The notes: generated by a model from the letters alone, not told the origin. 64,000 bases of DNA from an uncultured Chthoniobacter sp. (GCA_964609925.1 CAZSUJ010000009.1:4290-68289); one strand, 5' to 3'. Numbered from the stretch's first letter, positions 12,846 through 58,347 are shown. Numbers and translations are program-made.

Positions 12846-15236
12846 TCAGGGCGGTGGCACGGACACGTTCAGGCGCATGAAGCGTTGCGCGGGGTTGTCC
12901 CCCGGATCCAACACATCGAGCACGGTGACGTTTTCTCCCAAGTTCCCGGGGTTCTCGGCGAGAACTTTCCACGAGGTGAGGTTCGAGGTGGCTTCGACGC
13001 GGTAGGTCACGTCGCCGCGCAGACGGGGGAACGTCAGCGACTCGGGCGACGTGTGCATGGTCACAGGCGTGTTGTTGCCGCAGGCGTAGCCCATGAGTTC
13101 GTTGATGTAGGCCGGAGCGCCGTAAACGTCGGCCGAGGTGCGGTGGGAGTTGGTGTGATCTCCGTCCTGGTTGCTGTTGACGGCGATCATGTGACCGAAG
13201 GGCGGGATGGTGTCGGCCACGGTGGTGGTGCCGTTCGTGGCGGCGAGCGGGGTGACCGTGTTGGTCCAACTGCGGTGCAGTGTGGTGCGGGCGTAGTTGG
13301 TCCCGACGACGAAACTGCCGGAGTAGCTGCGGGCCGTGCCGGTGAGGTTCTGCACGATGCGGACCTTGCGCGCGTTTTCGTGGAACTGCAGCACGGCCCA
13401 GTTGGTGTTGTTCGTGAGGACGTTGTAGACGGGGGATGCTGCGGCGTTGGTGCCGCGGTGGACGTCGAGAACGAGCCAGCGGCGGGTTCCGGCGGGGAAG
13501 ATCACGGGCGCGTCGTCGCCCGCGATGGCCGGATCGTGCAGGCGGACGAGGGCGGAGAAGTCGTCGGTCGAATTGGGATCGGAAATGGCGAGGCGCTGGG
13601 TGGTGATGTTGCCGGTGAAGGTGGAAAGGGGCACCCTGGCCCGCAGATCGCCGAAGGCGAACGAATTGGTGGCCGGTTGCGTGAGGTCGAGGTAGCTGCC
13701 CATGATGCCGCGGCGGCCGCCGGAGAAGACGAGGCGCGCATCGAGTCCGTAGACCGTGCTTTGCGCGTCGGAAACGATCTGGAGGAGGCCGATGGCGCGC
13801 TCCCCGGTCAGCACCCAGAGTTGCTGTCCCATCCACGGGGTGACGCCGTTGCTCCAGTTGGGCGACGCGGCGGCGCTGGTCCGCCTCGAGATGCGGTAGG
13901 TGGTGGAGAGAGTTCCGAAGTTCCGCCTCGTGATCGTGCGCGTCCGCTCGTCCTGCGCGAGGTAGCGATACTTCGACCCGCGCATCAGGTCGGTCTCTTC
14001 ACCGGGGGATTCTTTGAATTCGACCAGCACGGTATCGAGGGCACCCTTGAGCGACGTTCTGTTGGTGACCGCGCCCAGCGCAAAGGCGCCGACGAACGTG
14101 GCCTTGCCGCACTGCCGTCCGTCGTAGCCTTGGGTCGCGATGAGGTCGGCGTTCTCGGGGCCGCCATCCTGCACGTTCCGCCCGTTGACCGTCCATCCCC
14201 ACACCCCGCCGAAGCGGCCGCGCGGGCCCTGGATGTTGGCGTCGAAGAATACCCCGACGTCCGTTGGCGGTGTGCGCGTGATGCGGTCGGGTTGGTAGAG
14301 GATCGTGTTGAGGAGTTCGGTCGAGGTGGCGGTCTCCTCGGGTTTGCCGAAGAAGTAGTTGTAGCCGTCGTTGTAGAGGTAGGCCTTCCACAGCGAGGAC
14401 TTCGTGCTGCGGATGTTGTTATACATGTGCTTGTAGGGGATGTTCGACGACTGCTCGGTGAAGCCGTCGGGCTCGTTGGCCACGACGGAGTAGCGCAGCG
14501 TCGCATCAACGAGGCGCTTGGCCGCGGGCGAGCCGGTGATTTTCCACCACCAGAGGAAGCAGCGGATGGTTTCGTCATGGTAGGTCGAGACCTCGCCCCA
14601 GAATCCGACGTAGCGCGTGGCTCCGTCGCCGAGGGCGTTGAGCGCGAGGACATCGTCGATGGATTTGCGCGCCGTCTCCGCCGTGGCGGCATCGCCCCGG
14701 GCTAGGGCGCCGAAGTAGAGCGCCATGGCCAGGCGGATGTCGCCGTTCAGCCAGCCCTGAGCGAGGATGCCCTGGTTGTAGAGGAGGGGGTTGTCCGAAA
14801 GGATCGAGTTCTGGTTGGTGAGGATGGCATCCTCATAAAGGGCGATGCGGGTCGGTGACAGCGATTCGGGGGCGTGTTGCTTGAGCAGGTAGTAGGCGTA
14901 GTGCGCCTGCCAGATGCTGCCGATATCTCGCAACTCCTGGCCGGATCCCCAGAGGCCGAAGCGGTGATCGAGAAGGACGAGAAGACGGTCGAGGTAGGCG
15001 CTCTGCCCCTTCACGGGGCTGTCCGGTGAAAGATAGCCGTAGACTGCGAGCAGGATTTCATCGCCAGCCTTGCCGGTGTCCGGTTGCGGGACGGGGTCGC
15101 CGGTCTTCACTCCCCGCGGAAAGACCGCGGCGATGTTCGGTGCGTCCGGGTTCAGCGCGACGAATTCATGCGGCGCGGCGGCCGCCCCGCGGATGGCGCA
15201 CAAGATGACGGCTGCGATGAGGGGCCCGGTCTTCAT
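12846..15236 (-). CDS. Secreted hypothetical protein: alpha/alpha-toroid-like N-half, beta-rich C-half, shared C-terminal module (possible novel polysaccharide lyase/hydrolase)
   Basis: 796 aa. MKTGPLIAAVILCAIRGAAAAP is a signal peptide. The protein ends ...INELMGYACGNNTP...LTFPRLRGDVTYRVEATSNLTSWKVLAENPG...PAQRFMRLNVSVPPP. ATGA overlap with the upstream gene at 15233-15236. Confidence 0.8.
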   Translation of the reverse strand: MKTGPLIAAVILCAIRGAAAAPHEFVALNPDAPNIAAVFPRGVKTGDPVPQPDTGKAGDEILLAVYGYLSPDSPVKGQSAYLDRLLVLLDHRFGLWGSGQELRDIGSIWQAHYAYYLLKQHAPESLSPTRIALYEDAILTNQNSILSDNPLLYNQGILAQGWLNGDIRLAMALYFGALARGDAATAETARKSIDDVLALNALGDGATRYVGFWGEVSTYHDETIRCFLWWWKITGSPAAKRLVDATLRYSVVANEPDGFTEQSSNIPYKHMYNNIRSTKSSLWKAYLYNDGYNYFFGKPEETATSTELLNTILYQPDRITRTPPTDVGVFFDANIQGPRGRFGGVWGWTVNGRNVQDGGPENADLIATQGYDGRQCGKATFVGAFALGAVTNRTSLKGALDTVLVEFKESPGEETDLMRGSKYRYLAQDERTRTITRRNFGTLSTTYRISRRTSAAASPNWSNGVTPWMGQQLWVLTGERAIGLLQIVSDAQSTVYGLDARLVFSGGRRGIMGSYLDLTQPATNSFAFGDLRARVPLSTFTGNITTQRLAISDPNSTDDFSALVRLHDPAIAGDDAPVIFPAGTRRWLVLDVHRGTNAAASPVYNVLTNNTNWAVLQFHENARKVRIVQNLTGTARSYSGSFVVGTNYARTTLHRSWTNTVTPLAATNGTTTVADTIPPFGHMIAVNSNQDGDHTNSHRTSADVYGAPAYINELMGYACGNNTPVTMHTSPESLTFPRLRGDVTYRVEATSNLTSWKVLAENPGNLGENVTVLDVLDPGDNPAQRFMRLNVSVPPP

Positions 15237-20141: not shown

Positions 20142-21095
20142 TCACCAAGGTGGGGTCGCGGACGTGGTCAAGGTTGGCTCGCCCTCCAGCCAGCCGAGCG
20201 AGGCGAGGAACTTATCGGCTTCGCGGATCGCGGGGACCACGACGGATTCCGGCCACTTGTAGCCCGCAATGGCGAATGCGTGGCCGATCTCGGGCCCGTA
20301 GAGCACGAGGTCGCAGCGGTTGCCGGCGGACTTCATGGCGGCAGCGAACCGCTCGGCTTGTTCGACGCGGACCACCTTGTCGCCGCGTCCGTGGACGACG
20401 AGCGCGGGTGGTTGTCCGGGCGCGACATGGAAGATCGGGGAGAGATCCCGGGCCCGCGCGACCGAAGCTGCGTCCGTGGGGCGTGGCACGGACTTGTCCG
20501 CGAGGGCCGACCCGCCGACCGCGTAGCGGATCCAGTTGTCCTCGGTCATGTCCACGATCGGGTTGTAGAGCACCATCGCATCCGGGCGGCCACGGACGGC
20601 GGTGTCGTCGTCCGGGTGGTCGAAACCGTCGAGCGTTCCGAGCGAAGCCGCGAGGTGCCCCCCGGCGGACTCGCCGACCACCGCGATGCGGTCGGGGTCA
20701 ACGCCGAGCTCCGCGGCATGGGAGCGCACCCAACGCAGGGCGGAGCGGGCATCGGACAGACAATCCGCAACGCCAGGACCTTCGGGCAGCGCCTTGCGGT
20801 AGGTGATGACGAACGCCACGGCGCCGCGGTCGGCGAAGTAGCGCCCGAACGGGAGGGATCCAGCGGGTGATCCGCCGACCCACGCGCCGCCATGGATCCA
20901 CAGGATGGCCGGGCGGTGGTCGCCGGCTTTCCAGTCGTGCGGCTTGAAGGTGTGGAGCAGCAGGTCCTGTCCGTCGCGTCGTGCGTAAACGATTTCCTCC
21001 GGCGCCGGCTCGTTCATGAAATCCGACAACGGCCGGGCATCCGGGGCGGCGGCGAGGGAACCGGCAGCCAACACGGCGGTCAGCCCGGCCATCAT
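20142..21095 (-). CDS. Alpha/beta-hydrolase carbohydrate esterase/lipase (HGG + GxSxG type), secreted
   Basis: Start ATG 21095 (MMAGLTAVLAAGSLAAAP). ILWIHGGAWVGGS is the oxyanion HGG motif and VVGESAGGHLA is the GxSxG motif. ATGA overlap with the giant upstream gene (21092-21095). The upstream part of the track ORF (to 21680) is spurious. Confidence 0.9.
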   Translation of the reverse strand: MMAGLTAVLAAGSLAAAPDARPLSDFMNEPAPEEIVYARRDGQDLLLHTFKPHDWKAGDHRPAILWIHGGAWVGGSPAGSLPFGRYFADRGAVAFVITYRKALPEGPGVADCLSDARSALRWVRSHAAELGVDPDRIAVVGESAGGHLAASLGTLDGFDHPDDDTAVRGRPDAMVLYNPIVDMTEDNWIRYAVGGSALADKSVPRPTDAASVARARDLSPIFHVAPGQPPALVVHGRGDKVVRVEQAERFAAAMKSAGNRCDLVLYGPEIGHAFAIAGYKWPESVVVPAIREADKFLASLGWLEGEPTLTTSATPPW

Positions 21096-24000
21096 GGGGC
21101 AACCGGGGCGCTCACCTTGATTCGCATGAAGCGCTGGCGCGGGTCCAAGGTCGAGATGTCCACCTCGTCGGTCACGGTCACCGGTCCGGGCACGTTGGCA
21201 GCGCCCGAGGATTGCCAGATCGGCGACCAATTGGTGCCCGGTGTCGAGGTGGCCTCGACTTGGTAGGTCACACGCGGGTCCGCGATGCGGTTGAAGGTCA
21301 GCGTGAGGCGGTCCTCGCTGATCGCACGGGTGAGAAGGTTCGTCTGGCCGGTGGCGTTGGTCGGCGAGGTGCCGAGGGCGTATTCCATCACGTTGGGCAT
21401 GCCGTCGCGGTCGGGATCCGCGCCATCCGCCGCGGTGCCGGAGTTGTTGGTGGCGCCGAAGTTGCCCTGACGCCACGTGTCTCGCGGGGCGGCAAACGTG
21501 ATGTTCTCGAAGAGATTCGTCGCGCTCTGTCCGCCGGTGCGCGGGGCGACGAAAAGGCCGACGCTGAGGTTGGCACCGGTCAGCGGGTTGGTGCGCGGCG
21601 GCCCGATCTGGGTCCAGTTCGTGCCATCGGGCGAACGGAAGCAGGTGAAGACATCGCCCCGGCGGACGAGGCGGACCCATTCGGGGATGCCGACGCCGTT
21701 GGTCGAGCTGCTGAAGAAGTTCACGTTGTTCGAGCTGCCGCTGGGCGCCGTCTTGTGCTGGGCCCAGGCATTGCCGCTGCGCAGCATGTAGGTCGCGCTG
21801 TAGCGCGCGCCCGTGGCGGTGGACTCGCGGAAGATGATCCCCGCCTTGGCCGACGAGTCGGGCGCCCCGAAAGTGGTCAGTCTGGCGGTGAACGTCCCGT
21901 CACCCTGCCACGGCTGCGAGACGTAGGTGAACGAGTCGTTGTTGCCGGTCCAAAGGTCGCCCGTCGTGCCGCCGTTGGTCGCGCCGCCGCGTCCGACGAC
22001 GAGGATTCCGTTGCCGTTGGTGATGGCGGCGGTGCCCGCGGTGGCGCCGGTGTAGGGGTGGACCTGTTGAACGGTCCACGGCGCGGGGAGCGGCGGCACG
22101 GTGACGGTCACGGTGAAGCTGGCGGTGCTCGTGTTGCCCGCCGCGTCAGTCGCGCTGACGTTCACCGTGGTCGTGCCGAGGTTGAAGAACGAGCCGGAGG
22201 CGGGTGTGACGGTGGGCGTGACATCGCCCGACAGGGCGTCCACCGCAACGACGTCGAACTCGACGTTGGCCCCGGTGGCCGTGGTGCCGGACACGCTGAT
22301 GTTGCCCGGCGTGGTGATGACGGGGCCCGTGGTGTCGGGGGCGACCTGCGGCGAGTAGAGGCGCAGTTCGGCCAGTTGGAGGAGCGACGGATCGCCGTTG
22401 TTGGCCGTGACATTGAGCCGGTAGAACTTGAACGCCGCGTTGTTGGCGAAGTTGAAGGCCAGGGTCTGCCCGCGCGCGGTGAAGGCGACGTTCGTCCGCG
22501 TGTCGAGCAGCACCCAGTTGACGCCGTCGTAGGAGCCGAGGAACTGCCAGTCTCGCGGGTCGGCGGCCGGTGTGTCGGCCGAACTGGTCACCTCGTAGCG
22601 GGTGACGCGAACGGCGGCGTCGCCGGCGAACTGGTAGTCGAGCCGCGCAGTGGTGGTGCCGCCTTGCGATTGCCATGAGGTGGCGGCATTGCCGTCGAAC
22701 GCGTTGGCCGCGGGTTGCCCCGCGCTGTCCGTCGAGGCCGTGCCGCCGCCGGGCGCCGCGGCCAGCGGGAAGGTGGTGGTCGAGTTGCCCGTCTCCGCCC
22801 AGTGCTCACCGGCGCTGTTGACCGCGTAGAAACGGAAGAAGTAGCGCGTGGAAGGAGCGAGGTTCACCGGCGTGTGCGAGATGTGGCCCGAGCCGGGCGA
22901 GCCGAGGTTGGCGGCGAACTGCCAGCTCGCGGCATCGGTGCCGCCGTCGGAAGTTCCGAAGTAGCAGTAGACCGTGGCGTTGGCGTCGAACTGCGGGTAG
23001 ACCAGCGTGCCCGTGAAAGTGGCGGTGTTGGCTCCCACGGCCGAGGCGCCGCGCGTCACCACGAACGGCGTCTGGACCGCGGCGTCGGAGCGGTATTCGT
23101 CGTTGTAGAGGCCCGCCATTTCGTGGGGGATCGGAACGAAGCCGGGCATGTTCGAGTAAACGATCGAGTCGGGCCGCAGGCGGAGGTCGTCGTTGGCGAA
23201 GTCGATGAAGCCGGGTTCGGACGCGTAGCCGATGTTCGGCCCCGACCCGAGCGCGGCGGCGCTCGATGTGCTCACGCTGTGTGTGCGTGTGTTGGTGTCC
23301 GTGGTGACGCGGCGCCAGTTGAAATCGGCGGAGAGCGGGCGGTAGGCCACGTTGTTCTGGATCACGCCGTTGGTGGCCGAGTGGAACACGAAGTTAACGC
23401 GGCTGTTGACCATGATGTTGTTGAAAACGTTGAGGCGCATGTCCACGCCGGCGACGGCCTCGCCCGGCCCGGTCGGGGTGGTCGTCCATAATCCGTAGCC
23501 GCGGGTCGCCCCGAAGGTCGCAGCCCCCGCGGCCGCACGGAGGTTGGCCACGTTGCCGTAGATGGCGACTTTCACGTGATCGAAGTCGTTGTAGTAGGCG
23601 TCGCCCACCGGGCTGGAGCCGACGTGGTTGTAACGGATGACCGAGTTCGCCTGGTAGTTCGGGCCGAAGCGGTAGATCGCGCCCATGTCGTCGGACACGC
23701 GGACGTGGTCGCGGATGTCGTTGTATTCGATGACCTGATTGTGTCCGCCCCAGTAGAGCGCGCCGTGCGGGGTGGTGCGGATGTCGTTGTGGGCGATGCG
23801 GGTGCCGACCGAATTCTGCGACCACGAGCCGATGGGACCGCCGAAGCCGGTGTCGATCGCGCCTTGGTAAACGCGCACGACCTCGCCGAAGTTGCGGAAC
23901 TTGTTGTTCACGACGAAGTGGTCGGTGTTGACGAGGGCGGGGTTGGTCTGGCCGCCGCGGAGCATGACGCCTCCGGCGGCGAGCTTCTCGAAGTCGCCCG

Positions 24001-28418: not shown

Positions 28419-31400
28419 TCAGGGGGCGTGGACTTTGAGGCGGAGGAAGCGGGAGGGGACGAGGCCGGAGGTCAGGTCCAGGGTGTCGGAAGCGGTGACG
28501 AGGCCGGGCGTGTTGTTCGTGCCGGTGGACTGCCAGACGGTCTGCCAGGTTGCGGCGATTGATGGGGCGCCTTGGACGAGGTAGGTGAGGCTCGGGTCGG
28601 GCGTTCGGTTGAAGGTCAGGGTGAGGAAGTTGCCGGTCCGCCCGATCATGCCGCGGTCGGAAGAGTGCGGAGCCCAGGGGTCCGTGCCGGTCGCATATTC
28701 GTGGAGGTTGGTCAGGCCGTCGCCATCCGGGTCGGCGATATCGGCGCCGTCGCCGACGTTGTCCGCGTTGCCGAACTGGTCTTCGCGCCAACTCTGGCGC
28801 GGGGTGAGGAAGCTGATGTTGTCGAAGAGGACGGTGGCGGGGTTGGTGCCGGTGCGCGGGCCGACGGCGAGGCCGACGCGCACATTGGTGCCGGCGAGGG
28901 TGTTTGTGATGGTCGGTCCGACCTGGGTCCAGGTGATCCCGTCGCCGGAGAAGAAGCTGCGCGAGGTGTTGTTCGAGCGCACGAGGCGGACCCATTCCGG
29001 GATACCGCGGCCAGAGGACTGGGTGTTGGTGACATTGCCGCCGGGGGTGAGCTTGTTCTGGTTGAAGCCGCTGCCGGCGCGGGTCATGTAGGTGAACGTG
29101 TTCTTGGCGCCGTTGGTGAGTGACTCGCGGATCATGATGCCGGCCTTGGCGGCGGAGTCGCTGCTGGAGAAGCTGACCAAGCGGGCGGTGAAGATGCCGT
29201 CGCCGGTCCATGGCATGTGGGCGAAGGTGAAGTTCTCGCTGGAGCCGTTCCAGATGTCGCCGCCGCGGCCTTGGAAAGTGAAGGCGCCGGTGCCGAAGTC
29301 GTAGCTCACGGTGCCGTTGGTGCCGCTCGTGCCATTGCCGATCTGCGAGACGGTCCAAGGGGTGGGAGGAAGGGGCAGGACGGTGACCATCCAGACGAGT
29401 TCGGCCGTGTTGCCGGCGGCGTCGGTCGCGGTGGTGGTAACGGGAGTGGTGCCGATGGGGAAGAGCGTGCCGGAGGCGGGCGTGTTCACGGTTGCGACGG
29501 CGCCATTCACGTTGTCGAGAGCGCTAGTGGTGAAGTTCACCACGGCACCGGTGGCGCCGGTGGCGGGGACGGAGAGGGCAGCGGGTGCGGTGATGACGGG
29601 TGCGGTGGTGTCCGTGCCGTTGGCGTCAGCAACTGCGCCGGTGACGATCGCGTAGTCGGAGAGCCCGGCCGGCGAGACGCAACGCACGCGGTAGTCGTAG
29701 GTGTGGCCGGGCTGGGTTGCGGTGTCGAGCCAGGTGGCGGTTCCCGCGGCGAGAGTGGTCGCGACGGGCTTCCAGTTCTCCGCGCCGGTCTCCGAACGCT
29801 CCACGACGTAGGCGGTTTCGGTCGTGGCGTTGTCCGACCAGTTCAGCCGGATGGCCGCCGCGGGTTGGCTGGCGGCGAGGAGGTTGGTCGGCGCTGCGGG
29901 GAGCGTCGTGGCCGTCCCGGCGGGGGTGCGCGAGGGCGCGGGTTCGATCTGGTTGCGATAATCGAGGAGTCGCGTGCCGTTCCGGTCGAGCGTGAACTCG
30001 TTCATGGTCACGCTCTGTCCGGCCACGGTCGCTGTGCGGGGCGTGAAGGCAAACGTATCCGTCTGCGCGCCGATCGTGACGGTGAGGTTTGAGCCGGAAA
30101 GCGTGGTGGCGGGCAGGGCGTCGCCTGCGCGGAAGGGGAAGAGGAGGATGCGGTATTCCGGCGCCGGGGTCGCGCCGCGTTCGATGACGAGGCGGTTCCA
30201 GTTTTCCGCGGTGGTCGGGCTGTTGACCGTCTCGATGTAGGCAAGGGAGCTGCCGGAGGTTCCGGCGGCTTGGGCCGGGGTGCCGTCCGCGCGGAGGATG
30301 CGGACGAGCAGGCGGCGGTTGCCGGTGGCGGCCGGTTCGGTCAGGACGACATCTGTGGCGGGGTCTGCACCGGAAGGAAGTCCTGCGCCGGTGAGGATGG
30401 TCAGGTCCTTGGGCAGGGCGGCGAACCATTTGTAAGTGCGCGCGGTGTCGTCCTTGCGCACATCGTCCACCACGAGGACGTAGGGTTTCGCGCTGCGGAC
30501 GAGACCGATCGTGCGGAAGACCTGCCGCATCGGGTTGAAGGACCGGGCCTGCAGGCCTTCGAACTGGCCGGGGTTGACCCAATGGGGGAAGGCGCGGAAG
30601 GGGGTGTTACCGAAAGCCTCGGGGATCTTGTTGCCGGCGCGGCGGAAGGTGTTGTGATTGTTCTGCTCGAGGGTGAAGCCGCTCGTGACGGTGGGGGTGG
30701 TGGTGTAGGCGTTCCAGCGCCATTCCTGGCTGTAGGCGTAGGTGGCGTCGCCCGTAGCGAAGACGGCGTCCCCGCCGGTGGGCGTCCACGCCGCGAGCTT
30801 CGAGGGGATGCGCTGCTTGTCGCCCTCCTGGTTGGTCAGCTTCATGCTGAGGCCGTCCACCTCGACGATGCTCTGGTAGCGGGCCTCCTGGATCATCGAG
30901 TCGCTGCCGCCGCTGTTGTAGTTGATGAAGAGGCGGCCGAGGGCCGAGAGGGTGAAGGTGTTGCGGTCGGCGAAGGTGTGGCCGCCGAAGTCCTGCCGCA
31001 CGTGGAAGAGGAGCGCCGCGGCCTCGGGGTCGTAGCCGGAGCGCGCGATCACGCTGCCTCCCTCGGGGTCCACGTAGTCGAGCGCGCCCTGCGCCTCGGT
31101 GTTGTGGGCGGTCCACGAGCTGGTCGAGGACACATCGGTCGCGTAAACGGCGGCCGGCAGGAGCATATTGAAATAGACGCTGCGCGGGGAGAACTTGCCG
31201 TCCCGAAAATCGGGGAACGTGCGCCATTGGCCTGCGGAGTCCTTGTATTCCGTGTTGATGAAGTTCCGCCACGCGAAGTCGGCCTGCGTGCTGTCCGGAT
31301 ACATCCACTTGAGCGCGATGTAATCGAGGCCGTTCATGAACTGGCGGCCCTTCTCGGGATTCGGTCCGCTGCCGCCGAGGAGATCGTAGAGGATGAACGA

Positions 31401-32561: not shown

Positions 32562-32658
32562 GGTGTCCGGGGTTTCGGATAGTGTGACACAGGTCGCACA
32601 ACTCTGTCGGACAGCTCGCGCGGCAAAGAATGGTAAACCTTCCGCGCGTGCCGGGCGG

Positions 32659-49848: not shown

Positions 49849-49877
49849 AAGAGCCTCATCGTTGGCGGACGGTTCTT

Positions 49878-49940
49878 CTGTAGCGGCGCTGTCCCCAGCG
49901 CCGGTGAGTTGCGTCGCCGGTGGGGACACCGGCGCTACAG
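49878..49940. repeat. REPIN doublet (two inverted 26-nt REP units)
   Basis: CTGTAGCGGCGCTGtccccAGCGCCG, an 11-nt spacer, then CGCCGGTGgggaCACCGGCGCTACAG. This shows the GTAG head plus hairpin architecture. Confidence 0.75.
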
Positions 49941-50041
49941 TGCGATCATTGTGAGCGTGATGACCGACGCCCGATGACGATCCGGAGGCGGCATTCTCAC
50001 CTCCGGGGGATAGAGAGCCTCACCGTCGGCGGGCGATTCTC

Positions 50042-50088
50042 CTGTAGCGGCGATGTCCCCATCGCCGGTGGGGACACCGGCGCTACAG
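50042..50088. repeat. REPIN doublet with the two units abutting (5-nt overlap)
   Basis: CTGTAGCGGCGATGtccccATCGCCGGTGgggaCACCGGCGCTACAG. Confidence 0.75.
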
Positions 50089-50189
50089 ACCGATCATCGT
50101 GAGCCAGATGCCCGGTGGTGGTCCGGGCGAGGTCGGCTCACCGCAGGACTCTGCTCGAATGAAGCCCCCCGTCCTCTTGGACCATAAGC

Positions 50190-50219
50190 AAAACCCCGCG
50201 CCGTTGCCGGCGCGGGGTT
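50190..50219 (-). terminator. Rho-independent terminator of the 50248-52326 gene
   Basis: The minus strand reads AACCCCGCGCC-ggcaac-GGCGCGGGGTT followed by TTGCTTAT. This is an 11-bp GC-rich stem and a T-rich tail, about 29 nt after the stop. Confidence 0.65.
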
Positions 50220-50247
50220 GCTTGATGATCGATGATGGAGCCTGCGG

Positions 50248-52326
50248 TCAGGGCTGCAGCACGGCCTCGATGCCCAGGAACTGGTTCGTCGAGGTGCGCG
50301 GGGTGCTGAAGATCTGACGCGCCGTGCCGAAGGGCACGCCGGACTGATCAACCGCATTGCTCTGCGTCACGGTATTCGTGGTCCACGGACCGGTAGCCAG
50401 GTTGGTCGTGGTCCGTCCGATGACCGAGAGGCTCGGGTTGTTCGTCCGGACGATGGCCGTGATGGACAGCAGGTTCGTCGTCAGAGTGGTGACGGACGGA
50501 ACGCTGTTGTTGTTCGTCGGGCCGCTGGCGCCGCCGACCGCGTAGAGGCTGAGGTTCGTCGTGTTGAGCGGTGCGCCCTGCGCCCAGCTCGTGAACGTCG
50601 CCCCTCCATTGTCGTTGCTCCAGAAGACCAAGGGCAGGGTCTGCACCACATTCGAGGGCCCGAGCACCCAGCTGCGGTTCTCGAAGAGGTCGTTCGGGTT
50701 GACGATCTCGTAGCCGTTGTTCACGGGGAAGCCGGGGCTGTAGAACTTGTATTGGTTGGTCGTGCCGGGGGCGCCCGAGATCGCGAACTCGCCCACGTAG
50801 ATGTTCGAGCCGGCGTTGGTCAGGTTGTAGTTCGTGTTGCCGGTCTCGTAGTTCTGCCCGTTGAAGTTGCCGATGACACGGACGACTCCGCCGTTCGTGT
50901 TGAAGTTGCCGTTGGCCACCTGCACGGTCATGTCAACCGAGAAGGACACGGGGCGGCTGGCCGGGACGTTGGTCTGGTTGTTCCAGAACACGGTGGGCTC
51001 GACCTGCGCGGGAGTCGGGCTGCCGTTCGTGTTCAGGGCGAGCACCAACTGGCGGTTGGGATCGTTCTCGTAGCCGCTGTTGGGCATGCCGACGCTGTAG
51101 AATTTGTAGGCGATGTTTTGCCCGTCCAAGCCGGCGATGTTCGAGATCGTTCCGGTGAAGACGCTGTTCGTGCCGGGGGTCAGGATGTTCCCCGAGGCCC
51201 CGCTGGTGTCCCAGTTGTTGAACGCGCCGACCACGAGCACATCGTTCGTGCCGTTGTAGTTGCCGAGCGCCTCTTGCACCGACATGTCCACGGAGAAGGT
51301 CACGTCGCGGAAGCCCTGGATGTTGTTGTAAAACACCGTGGGGAGGGTGAGGGGAGGCGGGGTGGAATTGGTCCCGACCGCGAAGGTCCGGTCAGGCGAG
51401 GTTTCGAGTGAGGCATCGATGGCGAATTTGTAGTTCACCGATGTCCCGTAGAACCCCGGGATGGCAAAGGTGCCTTCGAAGATACCGTTGGTGTCCCCGT
51501 CCGAGAGTTCATAAGCGAGATCACCGGGCGTGAACCCGTTCCAAGCGCCCGCGACGGTGACCACGTTCAGGGCCGGGTTGAAGTTAGTTATGGCCGTCTG
51601 CACGTTCATGTCCACCGAGAAGGTTACGGTGTTGGTGATGGAGAGCGCCGAGTTGGCCAGCGTGTAGGAATTGATGGGGTTAGTGCCGCCCGAAGTGTAG
51701 GGGCCGCCCCAACCGGTGACCGATACGTTCGGGTTCGCCAAGGCATCAAGCGCGCTATCTCCGCCGCCGCTGCCGGAGGAATAAGCATCAAAATAAAGGA
51801 CGCTGCCCAGATTGGTGGTCCCCAAACTGGCTTTGCTCACCGTGTAGTTGATGGTCGAGGTGCCGTTGGTGTTGGTGGCGAACGTGTAGGCGGTGAGGTT
51901 GCCAAGGTTGGTGCTCCAGTTGGTGCCAGTATAGCCCCAGATCTGTGAGCCGCCACCGCCGTTGACCCAAGAACCGATCCAGCGCGTCATGCCGCCAGTC
52001 GGGCCGTTGAGCTGGATCGGGCGATTCCAGCCGTTGCCGGTGTTGGTGTTTGTTGTGGCACCCGTCGCTATGCCGATCATCAAGTTGGCCCAGTCGTTAG
52101 GAGAGGCGATGATGCCATTGACGGTGAGGTTGAAGATCACGTCGCTGCTCGTGTCGGACACCTCCATCTTCACGATGTCCAAGGTGCCTCCGGCCGTCGG
52201 GAGGTTCGTCGCGATGTCACCGATCGCATCCGTGTAAATTGTCGGCTGCGCCAGCAAAGAGCCGGCGGTGAGGCTGAAAACGGCGAAGAACGCGCAGACG
52301 CGCACAACGAGGGGGCGGATTTTCAT
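50248..52326 (-). CDS. Secreted N/T/G-rich protein: glucodextranase-C-like N-domain, three tandem CBM20-like (starch-binding-fold) modules, shared C-terminal domain
   Basis: 692 aa. The signal is MKIRPLVVRVCAFFAVFSLTAGSLLA|Q. DAIGDIATN...LDIVKMEVSDTSSDVIFNLTVNG forms the N-domain. There are three about 105-aa repeats, each opening (T/D/P)V(T/S)FSVDM.VQ and containing ...V.G.(W/F)N....YKF... The C-terminus is NLSLYAVGGASGPT...LSITAIVRTNNPSLSVIGRTTTNLATGPWTTN...RQIFSTPRTSTNQFLGIEAVLQP. Confidence 0.85.
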   Translation of the reverse strand: MKIRPLVVRVCAFFAVFSLTAGSLLAQPTIYTDAIGDIATNLPTAGGTLDIVKMEVSDTSSDVIFNLTVNGIIASPNDWANLMIGIATGATTNTNTGNGWNRPIQLNGPTGGMTRWIGSWVNGGGGSQIWGYTGTNWSTNLGNLTAYTFATNTNGTSTINYTVSKASLGTTNLGSVLYFDAYSSGSGGGDSALDALANPNVSVTGWGGPYTSGGTNPINSYTLANSALSITNTVTFSVDMNVQTAITNFNPALNVVTVAGAWNGFTPGDLAYELSDGDTNGIFEGTFAIPGFYGTSVNYKFAIDASLETSPDRTFAVGTNSTPPPLTLPTVFYNNIQGFRDVTFSVDMSVQEALGNYNGTNDVLVVGAFNNWDTSGASGNILTPGTNSVFTGTISNIAGLDGQNIAYKFYSVGMPNSGYENDPNRQLVLALNTNGSPTPAQVEPTVFWNNQTNVPASRPVSFSVDMTVQVANGNFNTNGGVVRVIGNFNGQNYETGNTNYNLTNAGSNIYVGEFAISGAPGTTNQYKFYSPGFPVNNGYEIVNPNDLFENRSWVLGPSNVVQTLPLVFWSNDNGGATFTSWAQGAPLNTTNLSLYAVGGASGPTNNNSVPSVTTLTTNLLSITAIVRTNNPSLSVIGRTTTNLATGPWTTNTVTQSNAVDQSGVPFGTARQIFSTPRTSTNQFLGIEAVLQP

Positions 52327-52353
52327 GGGGGGATTGTTTGGTAGTTGTTGCGT

Positions 52354-52381: not shown

Positions 52382-52411
52382 CGTAAATCTGTCCCGTGGC
52401 GCCGCGGCAAG

Positions 52412-52438
52412 CACCTCCCCGGCTGGGCCGGGGAGGTG
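52412..52438. repeat. Perfect 11-bp inverted repeat (stable hairpin) in the divergent intergenic region
   Basis: CACCTCCCCGG-ctggg-CCGGGGAGGTG. There is no flanking T-tract on either strand, so it is not a classical terminator. Confidence 0.7.
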
Positions 52439-52496
52439 ACAGATCCCATCCCGCAGCGGGTGGGCGGCTGGTTTTGGCGACACCACAAAAAACCAG

Positions 52497-52525
52497 TTGA
52501 CATTGCTCCGCGGTATTTACATTGT
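52497..52525 (+). promoter_or_regulatory. Candidate promoter of the pseudopilin operon (A-tract, TTGACA, weak -10); predicts a leaderless or very short-leader mRNA
   Basis: acaaaaaaccag-TTGACA (52497-52502), then either 15 nt and TACATT (52518-52523) or 17 nt and CATTGT (52520-52525). ATG follows at 52532. There is no Shine-Dalgarno sequence. Confidence 0.35.
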
Positions 52526-52531
52526 GATTAC

Positions 52532-53062
52532 ATGAATCAGCCAGAGTTGGCAGTCCGCAGTCCGCAGTCTTCAGGTTCGCAGCTGGCCTCCCGCTCCCTG
52601 ACTCCCGATGCCTGCTGCCACCGCGCCCGGCGCCCCTTCGATGCCTTCACCATGATCGAACTGCTCGTGGTCATCGCCATCATCGCGATCTTGGCCGGCC
52701 TCACTCTCTCCACTCTCGGCTACGTGAACCGCAAAGGCGCGGAATCCCGCGCCCGCGCCGAGGTGGCGGCGCTCTCTACCGCCATCGACAGCTTTTTCGC
52801 CGATTACGCGGCCTACCCGGCCTCGAACAACCTTTTCCGCGAACTCACGGGCCACAGCGCGGCGCCCATCAACACCAATCGCAAAGTCTTTTTCGAGCCC
52901 CCCGCCAACATCACGACCAACCTGACCACCGGTCCATTCATTGATCCTTGGGGAGCGGCCTACAACTACAACCCCAGCAACCCCGTCAACAACGTTGGCT
53001 TCTACGACCTGTGGACAACTGCTGGCGGGAAAACCAACCAGCGCGACTGGATACGAAATTGA
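52532..53062 (+). CDS. GspG-like major pseudopilin (prepilin-type N-terminal methylation domain) with a 38-aa leader
   Basis: ...RARRPFDA|FTMIELLVVIAIIAILAGLTL has the class III signal core with E at +5. The GspG-like body has RAEVAALSTAIDSFFADYAAYP, IDPWGAAYNYNP and YDLWTTAGGKTNQRDWIRN. Confidence 0.85.
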   Translation: MNQPELAVRSPQSSGSQLASRSLTPDACCHRARRPFDAFTMIELLVVIAIIAILAGLTLSTLGYVNRKGAESRARAEVAALSTAIDSFFADYAAYPASNNLFRELTGHSAAPINTNRKVFFEPPANITTNLTTGPFIDPWGAAYNYNPSNPVNNVGFYDLWTTAGGKTNQRDWIRN

Positions 53063-53802
53063 GCGAGGTGCTTCCAGTCGTTAGTCGTCAGTCGTCAGCA
53101 GGAAGAGACTGCGGCCACGCCTGGGTTCGCGCGCTGGGCCGCATTCTTCATTACCGCTCGACTCGTCACTCGCCACCCGTCACTCGTCACCGCGCCCGCC
53201 GCGCGGGCGCCTTCACCCTTCTCGAACTTCTCATCGTCATCGGCCTTATTGCCGTTCTCATGGGGCTGACCCTTCCTGCTTTGCAGGGCCTCTTCGGTGT
53301 GGCCGGTCGGCGGGGCGGGGTGAACGTCCTCGCCGGCGCGATGGAGCAAGCCCGCCTGATCGCTATCCAGCACGGTGTGTCCTCCTACGTGGGTTTCCCG
53401 ATGGCTTTGGCCGACAAGGAGACGGCCTGGAACTCGGTGATTGTGTTCCGTGAGACACGTGCCGATGAGCGAGCGACCAACCCGGCGCAGTTCGCGGTGA
53501 TCAGCCGGTGGTTGCGTTACCCCACCGGCGTTTTTGTTGATCCCGGGACCATTCCTTCTGCCACCGTGAGCATTACTAACCTTCCGCGCTTAGCCAACCA
53601 GCCCGTCACACAGGTGTCAGCCGTCCAATTTGACCGTTTCGGCAAGCTCCGGCCCGAATCGCCCCTCCGGATCCATGTGGGTGAGGGTGTCGTGCAGGGA
53701 TCCACGGTCCGGTTCCGGCCGACGACGAACAATTTCAACGCCCTCAATATCCTCCCGCTCACCGGGCGCGTCAAAATCACCGACGGGGTCCTCGGCGAAT
53801 GA
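53059..53802 (+). CDS. GspH-like minor pseudopilin; start inferred (TTG 53059 overlapping the upstream stop, or GTG 53068)
   Basis: RARRAGA|FTLLELLIVIGLIAVLMGLTLPAL is followed by VNVLAGAMEQARLIAIQHG, a GspH/FimT-like helix. There is no ATG/GTG/TTG between 53068 and the hydrophobic segment, which implies a 48-51 aa leader. Confidence 0.7.
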   Translation: MSEVLPVVSRQSSAGRDCGHAWVRALGRILHYRSTRHSPPVTRHRARRAGAFTLLELLIVIGLIAVLMGLTLPALQGLFGVAGRRGGVNVLAGAMEQARLIAIQHGVSSYVGFPMALADKETAWNSVIVFRETRADERATNPAQFAVISRWLRYPTGVFVDPGTIPSATVSITNLPRLANQPVTQVSAVQFDRFGKLRPESPLRIHVGEGVVQGSTVRFRPTTNNFNALNILPLTGRVKITDGVLGE

Positions 53803-54440
53803 AAACGTCACAGTTTCCGACGCGCACGCGCAACGCACGGGCTGCGGGCACTCGGGCTTTCCCCTGCCTTCCTTCCCCCGTCCCCCGCTCAACCTCTGCC
53901 GCTTCGCCCCAGCGCTCCGCTTTCAGCCTCGTCGAAGTCGTCATCTCCATCGGCATCTTTGCCTTCGTTATCGTCGGGATCGTGGGACTGTTTCCGGCCG
54001 CCCTGCGGGTGCGGTCCGAGTCCGCCCTCGACACCCGGGCCGCCATGATCGCGCAGCAATTGATGGCTGCGGTGGATTCCTCGTCCAGCCTGACCAACGT
54101 GGTTGTGCCCACCGGGGCCTACACGGGGAACCCGGCGACCCGGACGGTCAATGTCCTGCAGAGCAATTTCCCCACGGTCCTTGGCTACCAGTCGCGCAGC
54201 ACCTTTCCGTTCTGGTATTTCCGGACGGCTCCCAACAGCTCCTGGACCAATGCCGGGGGGAGTGACCAAGAAATCGCGCAGTCAGCCGCCAATGAGATCA
54301 CCACCTTGGTGCGCATGTCGGCCACCACCAACAATCTCAACAACCTGGCACAGATCACGATAGAAGTGCGCTCGCCGGCCGCCTTGTCCCTCTCGAATTC
54401 CCGCGTCGTCACATTCACCACCCTGCGCCCGCTGCAATGA
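53799..54440 (+). CDS. GspI-like minor pseudopilin with a 41-aa leader
   Basis: MKTSQFPTRTRNARAAGTRAFPCLPSPVPRSTSAASPQRSA|FSLVEVVISIGIFAFVIVGIVGLF. ATGA overlap with the upstream gene. Confidence 0.75.
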   Translation: MKTSQFPTRTRNARAAGTRAFPCLPSPVPRSTSAASPQRSAFSLVEVVISIGIFAFVIVGIVGLFPAALRVRSESALDTRAAMIAQQLMAAVDSSSSLTNVVVPTGAYTGNPATRTVNVLQSNFPTVLGYQSRSTFPFWYFRTAPNSSWTNAGGSDQEIAQSAANEITTLVRMSATTNNLNNLAQITIEVRSPAALSLSNSRVVTFTTLRPLQ

Positions 54441-55171
54441 AGACGTCGCCACCCTCCTCATCGCTCCCCGCCCGTCATGGGGTGGCCGTCGGAGGCTTCA
54501 CCCTGATCGAGTTGCTGGTCTCATCCGCCATCCTCGGCATCGTGATGTTCATTCTGCTCTCGACGCTCACGACGTCCCTGTCGTTGTGGCGGACAACCGA
54601 GGCAAGTATCTCGTCCGACCGCGAGGGTCGCTCGGCGAACCTCCTGCTCGCCCAGGATCTTGCCAACGCCGTCATGCCCACGAACCCGGCCCTCTGGCCG
54701 CAGGTCACCCCGAACTCGCTGCGCTTCCTCACCCTCCGTTCGCCGGAGTATCAAGGAGCCACCAACGGCGTCGGTGACCTGTGTTTCGTGGAGTATCGGG
54801 TCGGGCCCGACACCACCAGCAGCACGACCAACTTCGTTGCGCTGACTCGCAACTTCGTGGGGAGCACGGCTACTTATGCGGCGCTCAAGAATGGCAACTT
54901 CCCGACGGTTGACGCGTCGCGGGCCCAGTTGCTTGCGGCCAACGTGGTCCCGAACCGCCGCGTCCTTTATTATAACAACGACATCACGGACGCCTATTTC
55001 AACGCCCTCGGCACAAACGGCCTTCCGGTCACCGCCAACGCCCGTCCGGCCATTATCGACGTGACCATCTCCACCGCCGACGAGGAAGGCGTGCGCACTC
55101 TCGACATAACCAACAAGCAGTTGCGGAGCGGGGGGTATTTCTCCTTCCGTGTCGCTCTGCCCAGACCATGA
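54437..55171 (+). CDS. GspJ-like minor pseudopilin
   Basis: MKTSPPSSSLPARHGVAVGG|FTLIELLVSSAILGIVMFILLSTLTTSLSLWR is PulJ-like. ATGA overlaps at both ends. Confidence 0.75.
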   Translation: MKTSPPSSSLPARHGVAVGGFTLIELLVSSAILGIVMFILLSTLTTSLSLWRTTEASISSDREGRSANLLLAQDLANAVMPTNPALWPQVTPNSLRFLTLRSPEYQGATNGVGDLCFVEYRVGPDTTSSTTNFVALTRNFVGSTATYAALKNGNFPTVDASRAQLLAANVVPNRRVLYYNNDITDAYFNALGTNGLPVTANARPAIIDVTISTADEEGVRTLDITNKQLRSGGYFSFRVALPRP

Positions 55172-58100
55172 AGAAAACCCCCAACTGCCCACACGAGGAA
55201 AAGGGCGCCGTGCTCGTCACGACGCTCATCGTCCTCACCGTTCTTGCGGTCGTTGCCGTCGCTTTCATGCAGAGCAGTTCGATGGACCAGCTCGCCTCGC
55301 GCAGCGTGTCCGGCGCCTACCAGGCCCAGTTGATCGCCGACGCGGCCGTCGGGGTCGCGCGCGGGGAGGTGGCCCGCCTGATCCAGCGCTACCCGGATTC
55401 CGCCACGGTCTGGCAGAACATCGGGGGAGGTCAGACCAACGAGGCCACCGTTCTCTATGTGCGTGCCGACGCCAACAACACCAGCACCAACGCCCGGCCC
55501 GGCCAGTCTGGCGCCGAGGTGGCCTTCCTCGGCTACCCGCTCGTCTCCCGCACAAATACGAATCCGCTGACGCTTCCTGTCCTGGCGACCAACATGCCTT
55601 TCACCACGGCCAATCGGGAGATGGTCAACCTGAACGCGACAAACTCCAGTCGCTCGAACGCCTTCATCGGCCAACGCTCGATGACAAATCCCGGCGCACC
55701 AGTCGCCGCCGCCGACTGGATCTACATCGGGCGGAACCCCGGCCCGACCAACACCACCAATCCGCCGATTGGCCGGTATGCCTACTGGGTTGAGGACGAG
55801 AGCTTCAAGGTCAACGTCAATACCGCTACCAACGGGGCCCGGGGCACCAGCACGAACATCGGTCCCGACGGCGTCCGCTTGGACGGCTCGTGGCAGAGTT
55901 CCTCCAACGCCGCCGTGCGCGCCGCCGCAGCCGCCACCGTGGTGTCGGATCGCGGAACCAACGCATCCTTCTTCCCGACGGCCGGCTCGGCTGCCGTGGC
56001 CGCGGGCTTGCCCGATTCGCGCTCGGCTGACGAGTTCCGCTTCCTCACCACCGCGCACTCCGCCGGTCTCGACCTCTCCCGCGGCGGATTCCGGCGTTTC
56101 AACCTCAACACCATCACCAACGGCGACAAGCGCACTGCTCTCAACCGCGTCATCACCGCGATAACCAACTCCAACGCAGCCCCGCTATTCGGCCAGCGGT
56201 TTTACCGCACCAACAACAACGTTTTGGGCATCAACGACACCAACGCCGTCTCTACGAACCACGCGGCCATCTACCTCCAGAAGATCGCGGCGAACATCTA
56301 CGACTACCTCGACAGCGACGACCAGCCGACCATCATCAATAACGACGCCACCTACACCCTGCGCACCGGGCGGCCGACGGAGCCGATCTTCGCCGTCGGT
56401 GGAGGATATGACGGCAGCAATTCCATCGCGGCTTTCGGCGTCGAGAGTTTCCCGCGTCTGCAGGAATGGGCCATGCACGCGAGGGTGTGGCGGATGTCCT
56501 ACAGCAACGGCCCCGACAGCCGCAGCAATTTCGGGTTTGTGCACAACGCCACCAACCCCACCGCGAATCCCACTCGGGCTGACTACGAAATCTGGCTGGA
56601 CTACTACTTCGAGTTTTACAACCCCGGCACGCGAGACATCACGGTCAGCAATGCGTTCATCACGCTCGACAAGTTGCCGGCGTTCGACGGCGGCGGGTCA
56701 GGGGATGCACTCGCCAACGAACGCTCGATCACCAACATCCCGTTGAATGCCACCTTCCCCGCGGGCCGGGTCACGATCCTCTCCACGGCACCCATCGGGG
56801 AGGACAGCTTTTCGAGCAGCAGCTCCGGAGGCATCATCACCAACCGGGCGGACGTCGTTTATCTGACAGTTGCCGATACCAACCGCAAATTCACGGGCTT
56901 CACCACCAATATTGCAGTGCAAACTTACGACCCTGTCGGCGACAACCGGGTTCCGCCGAATCCGAACTTCAATCGCCTTTTCCAAGTCTCGATGAGGACC
57001 GGTCCCCAGACCAAAGGCTCCATCTTGATCGGAAACGACGCTGGCATCTTGGAAAGCTTTGTCGGGCTTCCATTCAACGCCCAGACTAACCCCAACGTCA
57101 GCGGTATGGCACTGAGGATCGGAAGCGGCTGGATCCGCAATGGGCTGATGACCATCGGCGATGGCAACAACGACAATGTGCGTGCGGCGAGCCTTTTTGG
57201 GAACAGTAATGACGGCAACGCCCGCCCTTCAGCCACCGAGGGCGATCCGCGGGCACTGAACGATCAATTGGAGTTCTTCAACTTTGCGACGAGCAACGCT
57301 GACCGCGACCAGACGCGCTTCTATGTCGCCGTCACCGGCAACTCGGGGCTCCCCGAGAACTCGACATTCGGCAGCCTCAACACCAATTACGTGTGGGCGA
57401 CGAACTGGACGGACTACACGCCTTGGCAGCCGAACTCGAACAATGCCCCGCTTTTCGTCCGAAACAGCCCCATGCTCAGCGTCGGTGAACTCGGCCACAT
57501 CACCGATCCGGCCCGGACGCTTGGCTCCTCCGGCAACATCGCCCGCTCGCGGGGAGGCGGGAGAACATTCCGGATCGGGCAGCCCGAGTTGACCAACGCG
57601 AACAGCCCCTGGCGCCAGGCCTGGTATACAGGAAGCCAGACCAATGCCAGCCGCACATGGACGTCTTGGCGTCTGGCCGACATCTTCACCGTCACCACAA
57701 ACACGAACGTGGCCATCCGCGGCCTGGTCAACCCGAACGGCGCCCTGCGTGACAACGGCGCCGCCCTGCGCGCCGCCCTCTTCGGACTTACCTTCCTCCC
57801 CGTCACCCCCGAAGGCGCCTCCTCCCTTGCGGGACGGGGAGCCAACGTTAGCAACGTGGTCAGCAATGTGGTGGCCCGCCTCACCAACGGTGCCGCGTCA
57901 GGCTTCGGCGCCGGGACCTTTAACCCGTTCTGGGAGCGTGGCGAGATCTCGGAACTGGCCGTCCTCAACTCATCCGCCTCGGGCACCGTGGCCGGTGGTG
58001 CGGTCATGTCGAACGCATTCGACCGTGGCCGCGAAGAGTTGGTGCGCCGCTCCATCGAGATGATTACCACGCGTGGTAGCGTCTTCACGGTCTATGCCGT

Positions 58101-58302
58101 CGGCCAGTCGTTGCGCGTCACCCCCAACTCAACTAATGTCACCGGCACGGTGACCGCCAAGAGCACCTTCGAGATCACTCCGCAGTTTGCGATCGGTGGA
58201 ACGAATGACGCTTTTGATCTGGCCAATGCCAACGCTGTCACCCGGCGTTTCCTGCCCCCCACCAACTACACCACCAAGGTCATCTCCACGTCCTACGATT
58301 AG
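55168..58302 (+). CDS. Giant (1044 aa) GspK-like pseudopilin-tip protein
   Basis: EEKGAVLVTTLIVLTVLAVVAVAFMQSS is a GspK-type non-cleaved hydrophobic N-terminus (RG.AL..VL...). GRYAYWVEDESFKVNVN matches the T2SSK signature (F/YA.wieDE..KiNlN). The remainder is N/T/S/G-rich with no family I recognise. Confidence 0.8.
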   Translation: MKKTPNCPHEEKGAVLVTTLIVLTVLAVVAVAFMQSSSMDQLASRSVSGAYQAQLIADAAVGVARGEVARLIQRYPDSATVWQNIGGGQTNEATVLYVRADANNTSTNARPGQSGAEVAFLGYPLVSRTNTNPLTLPVLATNMPFTTANREMVNLNATNSSRSNAFIGQRSMTNPGAPVAAADWIYIGRNPGPTNTTNPPIGRYAYWVEDESFKVNVNTATNGARGTSTNIGPDGVRLDGSWQSSSNAAVRAAAAATVVSDRGTNASFFPTAGSAAVAAGLPDSRSADEFRFLTTAHSAGLDLSRGGFRRFNLNTITNGDKRTALNRVITAITNSNAAPLFGQRFYRTNNNVLGINDTNAVSTNHAAIYLQKIAANIYDYLDSDDQPTIINNDATYTLRTGRPTEPIFAVGGGYDGSNSIAAFGVESFPRLQEWAMHARVWRMSYSNGPDSRSNFGFVHNATNPTANPTRADYEIWLDYYFEFYNPGTRDITVSNAFITLDKLPAFDGGGSGDALANERSITNIPLNATFPAGRVTILSTAPIGEDSFSSSSSGGIITNRADVVYLTVADTNRKFTGFTTNIAVQTYDPVGDNRVPPNPNFNRLFQVSMRTGPQTKGSILIGNDAGILESFVGLPFNAQTNPNVSGMALRIGSGWIRNGLMTIGDGNNDNVRAASLFGNSNDGNARPSATEGDPRALNDQLEFFNFATSNADRDQTRFYVAVTGNSGLPENSTFGSLNTNYVWATNWTDYTPWQPNSNNAPLFVRNSPMLSVGELGHITDPARTLGSSGNIARSRGGGRTFRIGQPELTNANSPWRQAWYTGSQTNASRTWTSWRLADIFTVTTNTNVAIRGLVNPNGALRDNGAALRAALFGLTFLPVTPEGASSLAGRGANVSNVVSNVVARLTNGAASGFGAGTFNPFWERGEISELAVLNSSASGTVAGGAVMSNAFDRGREELVRRSIEMITTRGSVFTVYAVGQSLRVTPNSTNVTGTVTAKSTFEITPQFAIGGTNDAFDLANANAVTRRFLPPTNYTTKVISTSYD

Positions 58303-58347
58303 GCCCGGAGATTGACTTTTTTGGCGGCTTCCTTTCCCTCTCTCTTC

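Follow-up and report, generated by a model that had tools for sequence, protein, structure and literature searches.

Why do five different secreted proteins, encoded within 64 kb of one genome, end in what looks like the same piece of protein? We examined this question in a stretch of 64,000 nucleotides from an uncultured Chthoniobacter sp. (GCA_964609925.1 CAZSUJ010000009.1:4290-68289; hereafter the window, meaning this whole stretch), for which a sequence-only reading had proposed that a common C-terminal module, a candidate sorting or anchoring domain, terminates five otherwise unrelated proteins. Verrucomicrobia are major polysaccharide degraders of soil, freshwater, ocean, and gut, and how their large complements of glycan-degrading enzymes and adhesins pass across or onto the outer membrane is poorly understood. 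We find that the module belongs to a genuine domain family of considerable size, which is unannotated and shows the positional signature of sorting or anchoring modules; the mechanism we infer. A phylum-specific C-terminal tag, if this is one, would predict which enzymes are surface-exposed or make the first attack, and the module could then serve as bait for an envelope partner or machine and as a portable display tag in these organisms.

The five open reading frames (ORFs) lie at the positions originally proposed, translate as quoted there, and all have a signal-peptide-like N-terminus. Pairwise BLAST of the tails divides them into two groups, subfamily A (p2154, p1380, and p796) and subfamily B (p692 and p1151). 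The modules are:

21095..21484, minus strand: subfamily A module of p2154 (ORF 21092-27556; core in the sequence-only reading, 21095-21427)
28422..28799, minus strand: subfamily A module of p1380 (ORF 28419-32561; longest ORF to 32807)
12849..13136, minus strand: subfamily A module of p796, truncated and divergent (ORF 12846-15236)
50251..50595, minus strand: subfamily B module of p692 (ORF 50248-52326)
62699..63046, plus strand: subfamily B module of p1151 (ORF 59594-63049)

The core ranges stand, with the correction that a conserved helix containing W (WRxxxFG in A, FxxWxxG in B), about 20 amino acids (aa) further upstream, marks the start of the module. The p2154 module proceeds from the WRxxxFG helix through an EF-hand/TSP3-like loop, DPDRDGMPNVME, and a helix, NVMEYALG, into a six-strand sandwich ending RFMRIKVSAPVAP. 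In translation, the p1380 module has the loop DPDGDGLTNLHE and ends in SRFLRLKVHAP, and p796 has kept only the sandwich, lost the calcium loop, and ends in QRFMRLNVSVPPP. The B-type modules read FTSWAQG...YAVGGASGP...SITAIVRTNNP...NQFLGIEAVLQP in p692 and YTAWLNG...YAIGGASSP...SITAIVRTNDP...SQFLRLDSILQP in p1151. The literal motif first proposed for all five tails, opening with N-x-(L/M)-x(1-2)-Y-A-x-G-x(2-3)-P, fits these translations only approximately, as p1380 reads N-L-H-E-Y and both B-type tails have G-x4-P. Neither hidden Markov models (HMMs) built from the window tails nor deep profiles free of window sequence found a sixth copy in the six frames of the window.

Are the two groups one family? 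Within each, the tails are close by BLAST (p2154 versus p1380, E 2e-26; p2154 versus p796, E 1e-7 over 67 aa; p692 versus p1151, E 1e-37). Between them the BLAST signal is weak (E ~0.07), and HMMs made from two or three window tails did not detect the other subgroup. Database-derived alignments of A and B aligned by hhalign at 94.7% and E 6e-8 over 91 collinear columns, and deeper profiles that include no window sequence did so at 96.8% and E 2.5e-10. Two natural intermediates, P0103 and P0104, join an A-type TSP3-like lead-in (DSNGDGISNLMAYALG) to a B-type body. Because the hhalign results and these intermediates link both groups, we treat A and B as one family. The window-free A-deep profile matches p2154 (8e-52), p1380 (2.5e-42), p796 (1.3e-8, covering profile positions 93-155 only), and, weakly, p1151 (1.9e-4); the B-deep profile matches p692 (4.5e-48) and p1151 (4e-58). 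All five tails are homologous, and the module measures ~100-140 aa. The single uniform pattern suggested at the outset is thus one family made of two divergent subfamilies.

AlphaFold2 models were obtained for one tail of each subfamily. The p2154 tail (pLDDT 89.6, pTM 0.81) has helices at residues 11-16 and 24-27 and six strands, and the p1151 tail (pLDDT 93.3, pTM 0.84) has two helices and six strands. The order of elements is the same in both, one or two short N-terminal helices and then six beta-strands, and the final strand of each corresponds to the F-[LM]-R-[LI] motif. Subfamilies A and B are therefore confidently modeled with a shared fold, in which short helices precede a six-stranded immunoglobulin (Ig)-like sandwich. 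The TSP3-like Ca2+ motifs that had been noted before two copies are readable in p2154 and p1380, where the lead-ins DPDRDGMPNVME and DPDGDGLTNLHE fit a putative 12-residue DxDxDGxxNxxE calcium loop; this loop is lost in subfamily B as well as in p796. The p1380 tail matches TSP3_bac PF18884 at E 0.0026 and 18 bits, under the 25-bit cutoff, and the isolated tails of p2154, p796, p692, and p1151 have no PF18884 match at E ≤ 10. Among 205 subfamily B representatives, each from a different 50%-identity cluster, 30/116 positions are at least 80% identical. The conserved polar and loop residues include R50, T51, D53, Q84, P88, G90, R93, and R109, a pattern beyond the demands of a hydrophobic core and suggestive of a conserved interaction surface.

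Searched exhaustively by HMM, 1.84 billion cluster representatives yielded 2,828 proteins at E ≤ 1e-3; of these, 703 reach E ≤ 1e-10 and 128 reach E ≤ 1e-30. Database and metagenomic carriers served to check the proposal that the module is exclusively terminal. Of 260 database carriers, 256 stop within 6 aa of the module, and none has two modules (0/260). The four exceptions (P0208, P0224, P0228, and P0235) make up a single subfamily, in which a further conserved domain of ~131 aa (SGTNTTVSVARDSGGATFLQVTGATAG...) comes after the module, and are the only credible internal copies. Metagenomic carriers of subfamily A end ≤ 2 aa after the module in 24 of 27 cases. The remaining three (L079, L082, and L093) continue into Arg-rich or low-complexity sequence, and given this kind of read-through we rejected them as internal copies and judged them lost stops or assembly errors.

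To which organisms does the family belong? A scan of species-representative genomes, made with subfamily B patterns only, yielded 65 loci; the metagenome scan covered close subfamily A relatives only. These scans used alignments A2 and A5, with A4 and A1 being too divergent for a locus search by back-translation, and an indexed protein search returned almost solely short fragments at contig ends. The named lineages of the 65 loci are Verrucomicrobiota (Chthoniobacterales, Methylacidiphilales, Opitutaceae, and metagenome-assembled genomes [MAGs] labeled Akkermansiaceae), with few exceptions: two contigs from a single "Pirellulaceae" MAG and two MAGs whose title is just "bacterium". The loci closest to the window are from Chthoniobacterales MAGs, at 71-76% identity. 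The genome scan detected 2-5 copies per MAG, a lower bound because it demands exact peptide patterns, and the window alone has 5. We note that the two Pirellulaceae contigs (L010 and L053) belong to Pirellulaceae bacterium M30B19, a MAG whose study also produced Chthoniobacterales M30B17 and Akkermansiaceae M30B22; the module is probably there through mis-binning, or possibly through horizontal transfer.

The proteins that carry the module are diverse. Passengers of 41 sampled carriers include He_PIG, bacterial surface Ig-like, PATR (6/41, ending in the module), fn3, HYR, NHL, lamin-tail (LTD), F5/8 type C, CBM48, TIG, cadherin, PL11, GH44, and FG-GAP domains. A signal-peptide-like N-terminus is present in 58 of 72 full-length carriers, and the others look N-terminally truncated. 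In the window, the tagged proteins are large and multidomain, and the GH43, GH29, GH28, SASA, and BD-FAE esterase proteins of the same cluster are untagged, a distribution that would fit tagging of large, outward-facing proteins. The beta-helix region of p2154 is related to a solved parallel beta-helix protein and to BT_1002. For several passengers, the best NCBIfam match is a family in which the canonical members bear other C-terminal sorting devices: autotransporter-associated repeats, the ScyF NHL PEP-CTERM protein, the ExeM GlyGly-CTERM exonuclease, the ShdA, fusolisin, and EprS autotransporter passengers, and the choice-of-anchor Z repeat. On one Verrucomicrobiota MAG contig (L095), a PATR protein with a canonical PEP-CTERM end (IPEPSTYAILAGVSALGLVAYRRRR; 238-2079) adjoins an A-type carrier. 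PEP-CTERM and the module hence coexist in one genome, and together with the PATR carriers that end in the module this indicates that the same class of passenger bears either device within the phylum.

We asked whether the module is already known under another name. Carriers are named "hypothetical protein" in public sources, and no earlier description of the module was found in the full-text literature. Pfam and NCBIfam models gave no match over the tails (full proteins at E ≤ 0.01, isolated tails at E ≤ 10, the scope of all profile results below), apart from the sub-cutoff matches to PF18884 and to NF042425 (see below). A search of PDB sequences with both profiles gave nothing meaningful. Foldseek searches of the PDB with both models gave no significant match, and neither a solved sorting domain nor a T9SS CTD was among the top results. 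The family is thus unannotated: none of the Pfam or NCBIfam models, solved structures, or papers that these searches covered describes it.

The closest analogy is to the C-terminal domain (CTD) of the Bacteroidota type IX secretion system (T9SS), which the module resembles in logic; by sequence profile, it falls into no known sorting-signal family. The T9SS CTD is likewise a sandwich of ~80-100 aa at the extreme C-terminus, in single copy per protein, on many unrelated Sec-exported enzymes and adhesins, several per genome, in one bacterial lineage. The verrucomicrobial module differs in its helical or TSP3-like lead-in and does not match the CTD profiles TIGR04183, TIGR04131, or PF18962, in line with the sequence-only reading, which had set it apart from both the T9SS CTD and PEP-CTERM. 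No T9SS machinery genes (SprA, PorU, PorV, or GldKLMN) are annotated within the window, and a T9SS is not known from the host phylum. PEP-CTERM/exosortase, GlyGly-CTERM, and MYXO-CTERM signals also take up this terminal position, on passengers of like kinds and in the same phylum. They are tails of ~25-35 aa composed of a motif, a transmembrane helix, and a basic cluster, whereas the module is a folded domain of 100-140 aa. The tails match neither TIGR02595 nor PF07589, the module has no PEP motif, and none of the 260 carriers has a hydrophobic helix at the C-terminus (maximum KD17 1.33).

Other candidates fare similarly. Bacterial TSP3 (PF18884) and dockerin resemble subfamily A in having a loop and then a helix, but dockerin has two loops and the module at most one, the bulk of the module is a beta-sandwich absent from both, and dockerin PF00404 does not match the tails. 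An autotransporter beta-domain or outer-membrane-protein beta-signal was rejected: those barrels measure ~250-300 aa, and the module almost never ends in an aromatic residue (final residue P in 42% of 260 carriers, R in 22%, Q in 16%, and N in 10%; Y in 2/260; no F or W). Nor does the module correspond to a characterized carbohydrate-binding domain; this and frequent internal copies were the two outcomes that would have refuted the sequence-only reading, which survived both checks. No carbohydrate-binding module (CBM) family of Pfam or NCBIfam matches the tails, and neither does fn3 PF00041. Likeness to such domains is limited to weak similarity of fold in Foldseek (a CBM21 variant, E 0.017; fn3/TENCON, TM 0.34-0.44).

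We tentatively favor the reading that the module represents a new class of C-terminal localization domain, for surface retention or delivery, of Sec-exported Verrucomicrobiota proteins; the case is circumstantial and our confidence in it is limited. The proposal starts from the near-exclusive terminal position on diverse verrucomicrobial proteins. Carriers would cross the inner membrane through Sec by means of their N-terminal signal peptides, and the folded tail would then bind a conserved envelope component, so that cargo is retained at, or delivered to, the cell surface. Such a device would follow the logic of the T9SS CTD, dockerin, or the SLH domain, but no membrane-spanning or covalent anchor would be involved. 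In the case of subfamily B, a pseudopilus may be the partner. Homology, fold, terminal position, single copy, and polar and loop conservation are established here; localization, non-covalent binding, and the identity of a partner we infer. The sorting or anchoring role first suggested for the module also fits its passenger diversity, the signal peptides, the number of copies per genome, and the restriction to one phylum.

Four points weigh against this proposal. First, unbiased ORF clustering over ~1 Mb of related loci found no conserved partner or processing neighbor. Second, the top Foldseek results are generic Ig, fn3, cytokine-receptor, and MHC-alpha3 sandwiches (best E ~8e-3, TM ≤ 0.45). 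Third, the extra domain of P0208, P0224, P0228, and P0235 implies that a free C-terminus is not absolutely required. Fourth, strict C-terminality could stem from another cause, such as a folding cap. Recurrent neighbors that did emerge from the clustering were rejected as partners; they are antisense shadows of the carriers, genes of the p692/p1151 synteny block (see below), and sulfatases, of which these genomes have many.

The strongest rival, which we consider rather unlikely, is that the module is an ordinary terminal Ig-like accessory domain, a cap, a spacer, or a low-specificity glycan or protein binder, whose position results from 3' domain shuffling. Its generic Ig/fn3-like fold with the CBM21 variant match, the lack of a partner gene in the clustering, and the tolerance of one subfamily for a further domain are all compatible with this, and many carriers are carbohydrate-active enzymes or lie inside glycan-degradation clusters. 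Shuffling is also suggested within the window, where p2154 and p1380 share a larger cassette:

21485..22336, minus strand: HYR and DUF1349-like block, directly upstream of the p2154 module (p1380 counterpart at 28800-29612)

Residues 984-1380 of p1380 and 1741-2151 of p2154 are 46% identical (BLAST E 4e-93), and the common C-terminal block of 412 aa consists of HYR (a Pfam match), a DUF1349-like domain (by a match in an ortholog on L066), and the module. The view that the carriers are otherwise unrelated does not hold for this pair, whose sequences suggest block-wise 3' domain shuffling between two different enzymes. On the other hand, CBMs and fn3/Ig spacers normally vary in position and occur in tandem; the module, by contrast, stands at the end of >98% of its carriers and always in single copy. 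It is found equally on non-enzymatic, adhesin-like passengers (cadherin, He_PIG, PATR, and NHL). Its polar and loop residues are conserved across clusters of <50% identity far above what a spacer would lead one to expect, and CBM and fn3 profiles fail to match it even at E ≤ 10. These features speak against an accessory domain.

A second rival is more specific and, in our estimate, improbable: that the module, at least in subfamily B, is a docking or export tag for a pseudopilus or type II secretion system (T2SS)-like machine, recognized by the adjacent GspG/H/I/J/K-like (Verru_Chthon-like) pseudopilins. Cargo could then be displayed at the fiber tip, in the manner of PilY1, or be marked for outer-membrane export. 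The idea arises from the genes between the two B-type carriers of the window, whose NCBIfam and Pfam matches are all under curated cutoffs; they are listed here, followed by a gene on the far side of p692:

52436..59337, plus strand: pseudopilin operon, made up of the next six genes
52436-53062: GspG-like
52948-53802: Verru_Chthon-cassette-like D
53799-54440: Verru_Chthon-cassette-like B
54437-55171: Verru_Chthon-cassette-like C
55168-58302: Verru_Chthon-cassette-like A/GspK-like, with PilX_N
58312-59337: 341-aa protein (X341), no family assignment
48448-49848: EEP-family (endonuclease/exonuclease/phosphatase) protein, start of a synteny block that spans 48448-63049

The best matches to the Verru_Chthon families TIGR02596-TIGR02600 fall on D, B, C, and A in the right gene order, with scores well below cutoff (A, 54.9 bits against 332; C, 37.6 against 256). 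By sequence, the operon is a relative of the Verru_Chthon cassette and not a curated member; no paper on Verru_Chthon was found by name in the full-text literature.

Both genes that flank the cassette carry a B-type module, and the arrangement of an EEP gene, a p692-like gene divergent from the cassette, and a p1151-like gene following it is kept in at least 10 loci of Chthoniobacterales and Methylacidiphilales at 28-76% identity (L001/L007, L002, L003, L004, L006/L020, L018, L021, L023, and L024). A separate and weaker signal is that, for 5 of 87 carriers, the start of a prepilin gene follows downstream on the same strand at a distance of ≤ 500 bp, compared with 0.40 expected (Poisson 6e-5). 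These are:

L028 7348-8160: prepilin-type gene after a carrier
L052 4584-5414: the same, H-X9-DG/DUF1559-like
L060 10301-11029: the same, H-X9-DG/DUF1559-like
L063 8543-9274: the same, H-X9-DG/DUF1559-like
L012 3181-3894: prepilin-type gene after a carrier

A similar arrangement occurs on L095, where an H-X9-DG/DUF1559-like prepilin-type gene (2306-3115) is separated from the carrier by the PATR gene. The A-type lead-in is also weakly similar to NF042425, the "Amuc_1099 family pilus-like system protein" (P0001 residues 54-118, E 3.2e-4, 20 bits, cutoff 50; one sampled carrier, 1.7e-7, likewise sub-cutoff). The corresponding stretches of the window are 21300-21427 and 28620-28751. Amuc_1099 is an uncharacterized component of the pili-like MUL2 locus of Akkermansia (PMC5332112, PMC13174399). 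In an Opitutales isolate, PulG-like pseudopilins are amplified to 67 homologs and occur in polysaccharide-utilization clusters; one such gene lies within an alginate-utilization cluster and is induced by alginate (PMC13274419).

Other observations count against the tag. The carriers next to a cassette all have passengers of the p692-like or p1151-like kind, and it may be those proteins, rather than the module, that are linked to the cassette. Prepilin motifs number 3 in 306 kb of subfamily A loci against 57 in 720 kb, with no enrichment in A. Since only two passenger orthogroups are involved and A shows no enrichment, we rejected a general linkage between cassette and module; the connection to the pseudopilin operon raised by the sequence-only reading holds only for p692, p1151, and their orthologs. 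About four of the five downstream prepilin cases are independent, as L060 and L063 are probably orthologs, and these genomes have a great many pseudopilin genes. Similarity to the Amuc_1099 family, far below cutoff at 20 against 50 bits, is centered on the TSP3-like loop and serves us as no more than a lead. A modular secretion signal is not known for the T2SS, which counts against such a tag.

The comparison with PilY1 is likewise mixed. PilY1, a non-pilin adhesin of type IVa pili, shares its locus with the minor pilins that carry it, and p1151 is similarly large and adhesin-like, has a signal peptide, lies directly downstream of GspH/I/J/K-like minor pseudopilins, and combines a variable N-terminal region with a conserved C-terminal domain. 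The C-terminal domain of PilY1 is a beta-propeller, in contrast to the small Ig-like sandwich of p1151, which has no match to PF05567, and the module also occurs on hundreds of proteins away from pilin genes.

More doubtful still is a broader proposal, that the module is the recognition or docking element by which a Verrucomicrobia-specific type-IV-filament (T2SS-like pseudopilus) system handles diverse enzymes and adhesins. The fibers would, with as little probability, be built of the amplified PulG-like and Verru_Chthon-type pseudopilins and export or display their cargo through the shared C-terminal domain. If the pseudopilin link were general, it would bear on T2SS-like cargo recognition and on the dozens of pseudopilin paralogs in genomes of the Planctomycetes-Verrucomicrobia-Chlamydiae (PVC) group; were docking the true function, T2SS-like machines would gain their first modular, transferable cargo signal, and the great expansion of PVC pseudopilin genes would be explained.

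Finally, a chance or compositional artifact of high-GC, Thr/Ser/Asn-rich secreted proteins, for which one could cite the non-significant A-B BLAST value (~0.07) and the failure of small HMMs across subgroups, is effectively refuted by within-subgroup E values of 1e-26 to 1e-37, recovery of the tails by window-free profiles at 1e-8 to 1e-58, the hhalign E of 2.5e-10, the natural intermediates, the congruent and confident AlphaFold2 models, and thousands of homologs. The family at least merits a Pfam or NCBIfam model, which would give informative annotation to thousands of hypothetical proteins.

We add several observations on individual carriers and their surroundings. The signal peptide of p1151 (window 59594-59680) holds a lipobox-like LASC at residues 16-19, and p1151 could accordingly be a lipoprotein and not a substrate of type-I signal peptidase. 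On L006, a p1151-like gene (7169-10351) has an in-frame stop at 9566-9568, just before the module, possibly marking a pseudogene or a sequencing error; a separate EEP-like protein on the same locus (11288-12562) also ends in a B-type module. Downstream of p2154 lies a BD-FAE/alpha-beta-hydrolase esterase gene, likely co-transcribed with it. The longest ORF of this gene (20142-21680) overlaps the p2154 tail in another frame, and as its Pfam domains begin only at residue 240, the true start is probably just past the p2154 stop. The GC content of the window (63-68%) gives rise to many long antisense or shadow ORFs, for example at 12885-14705 and 30270-32582 (both plus strand), and the antisense shadows of the module region cluster across loci as a pseudo-family.

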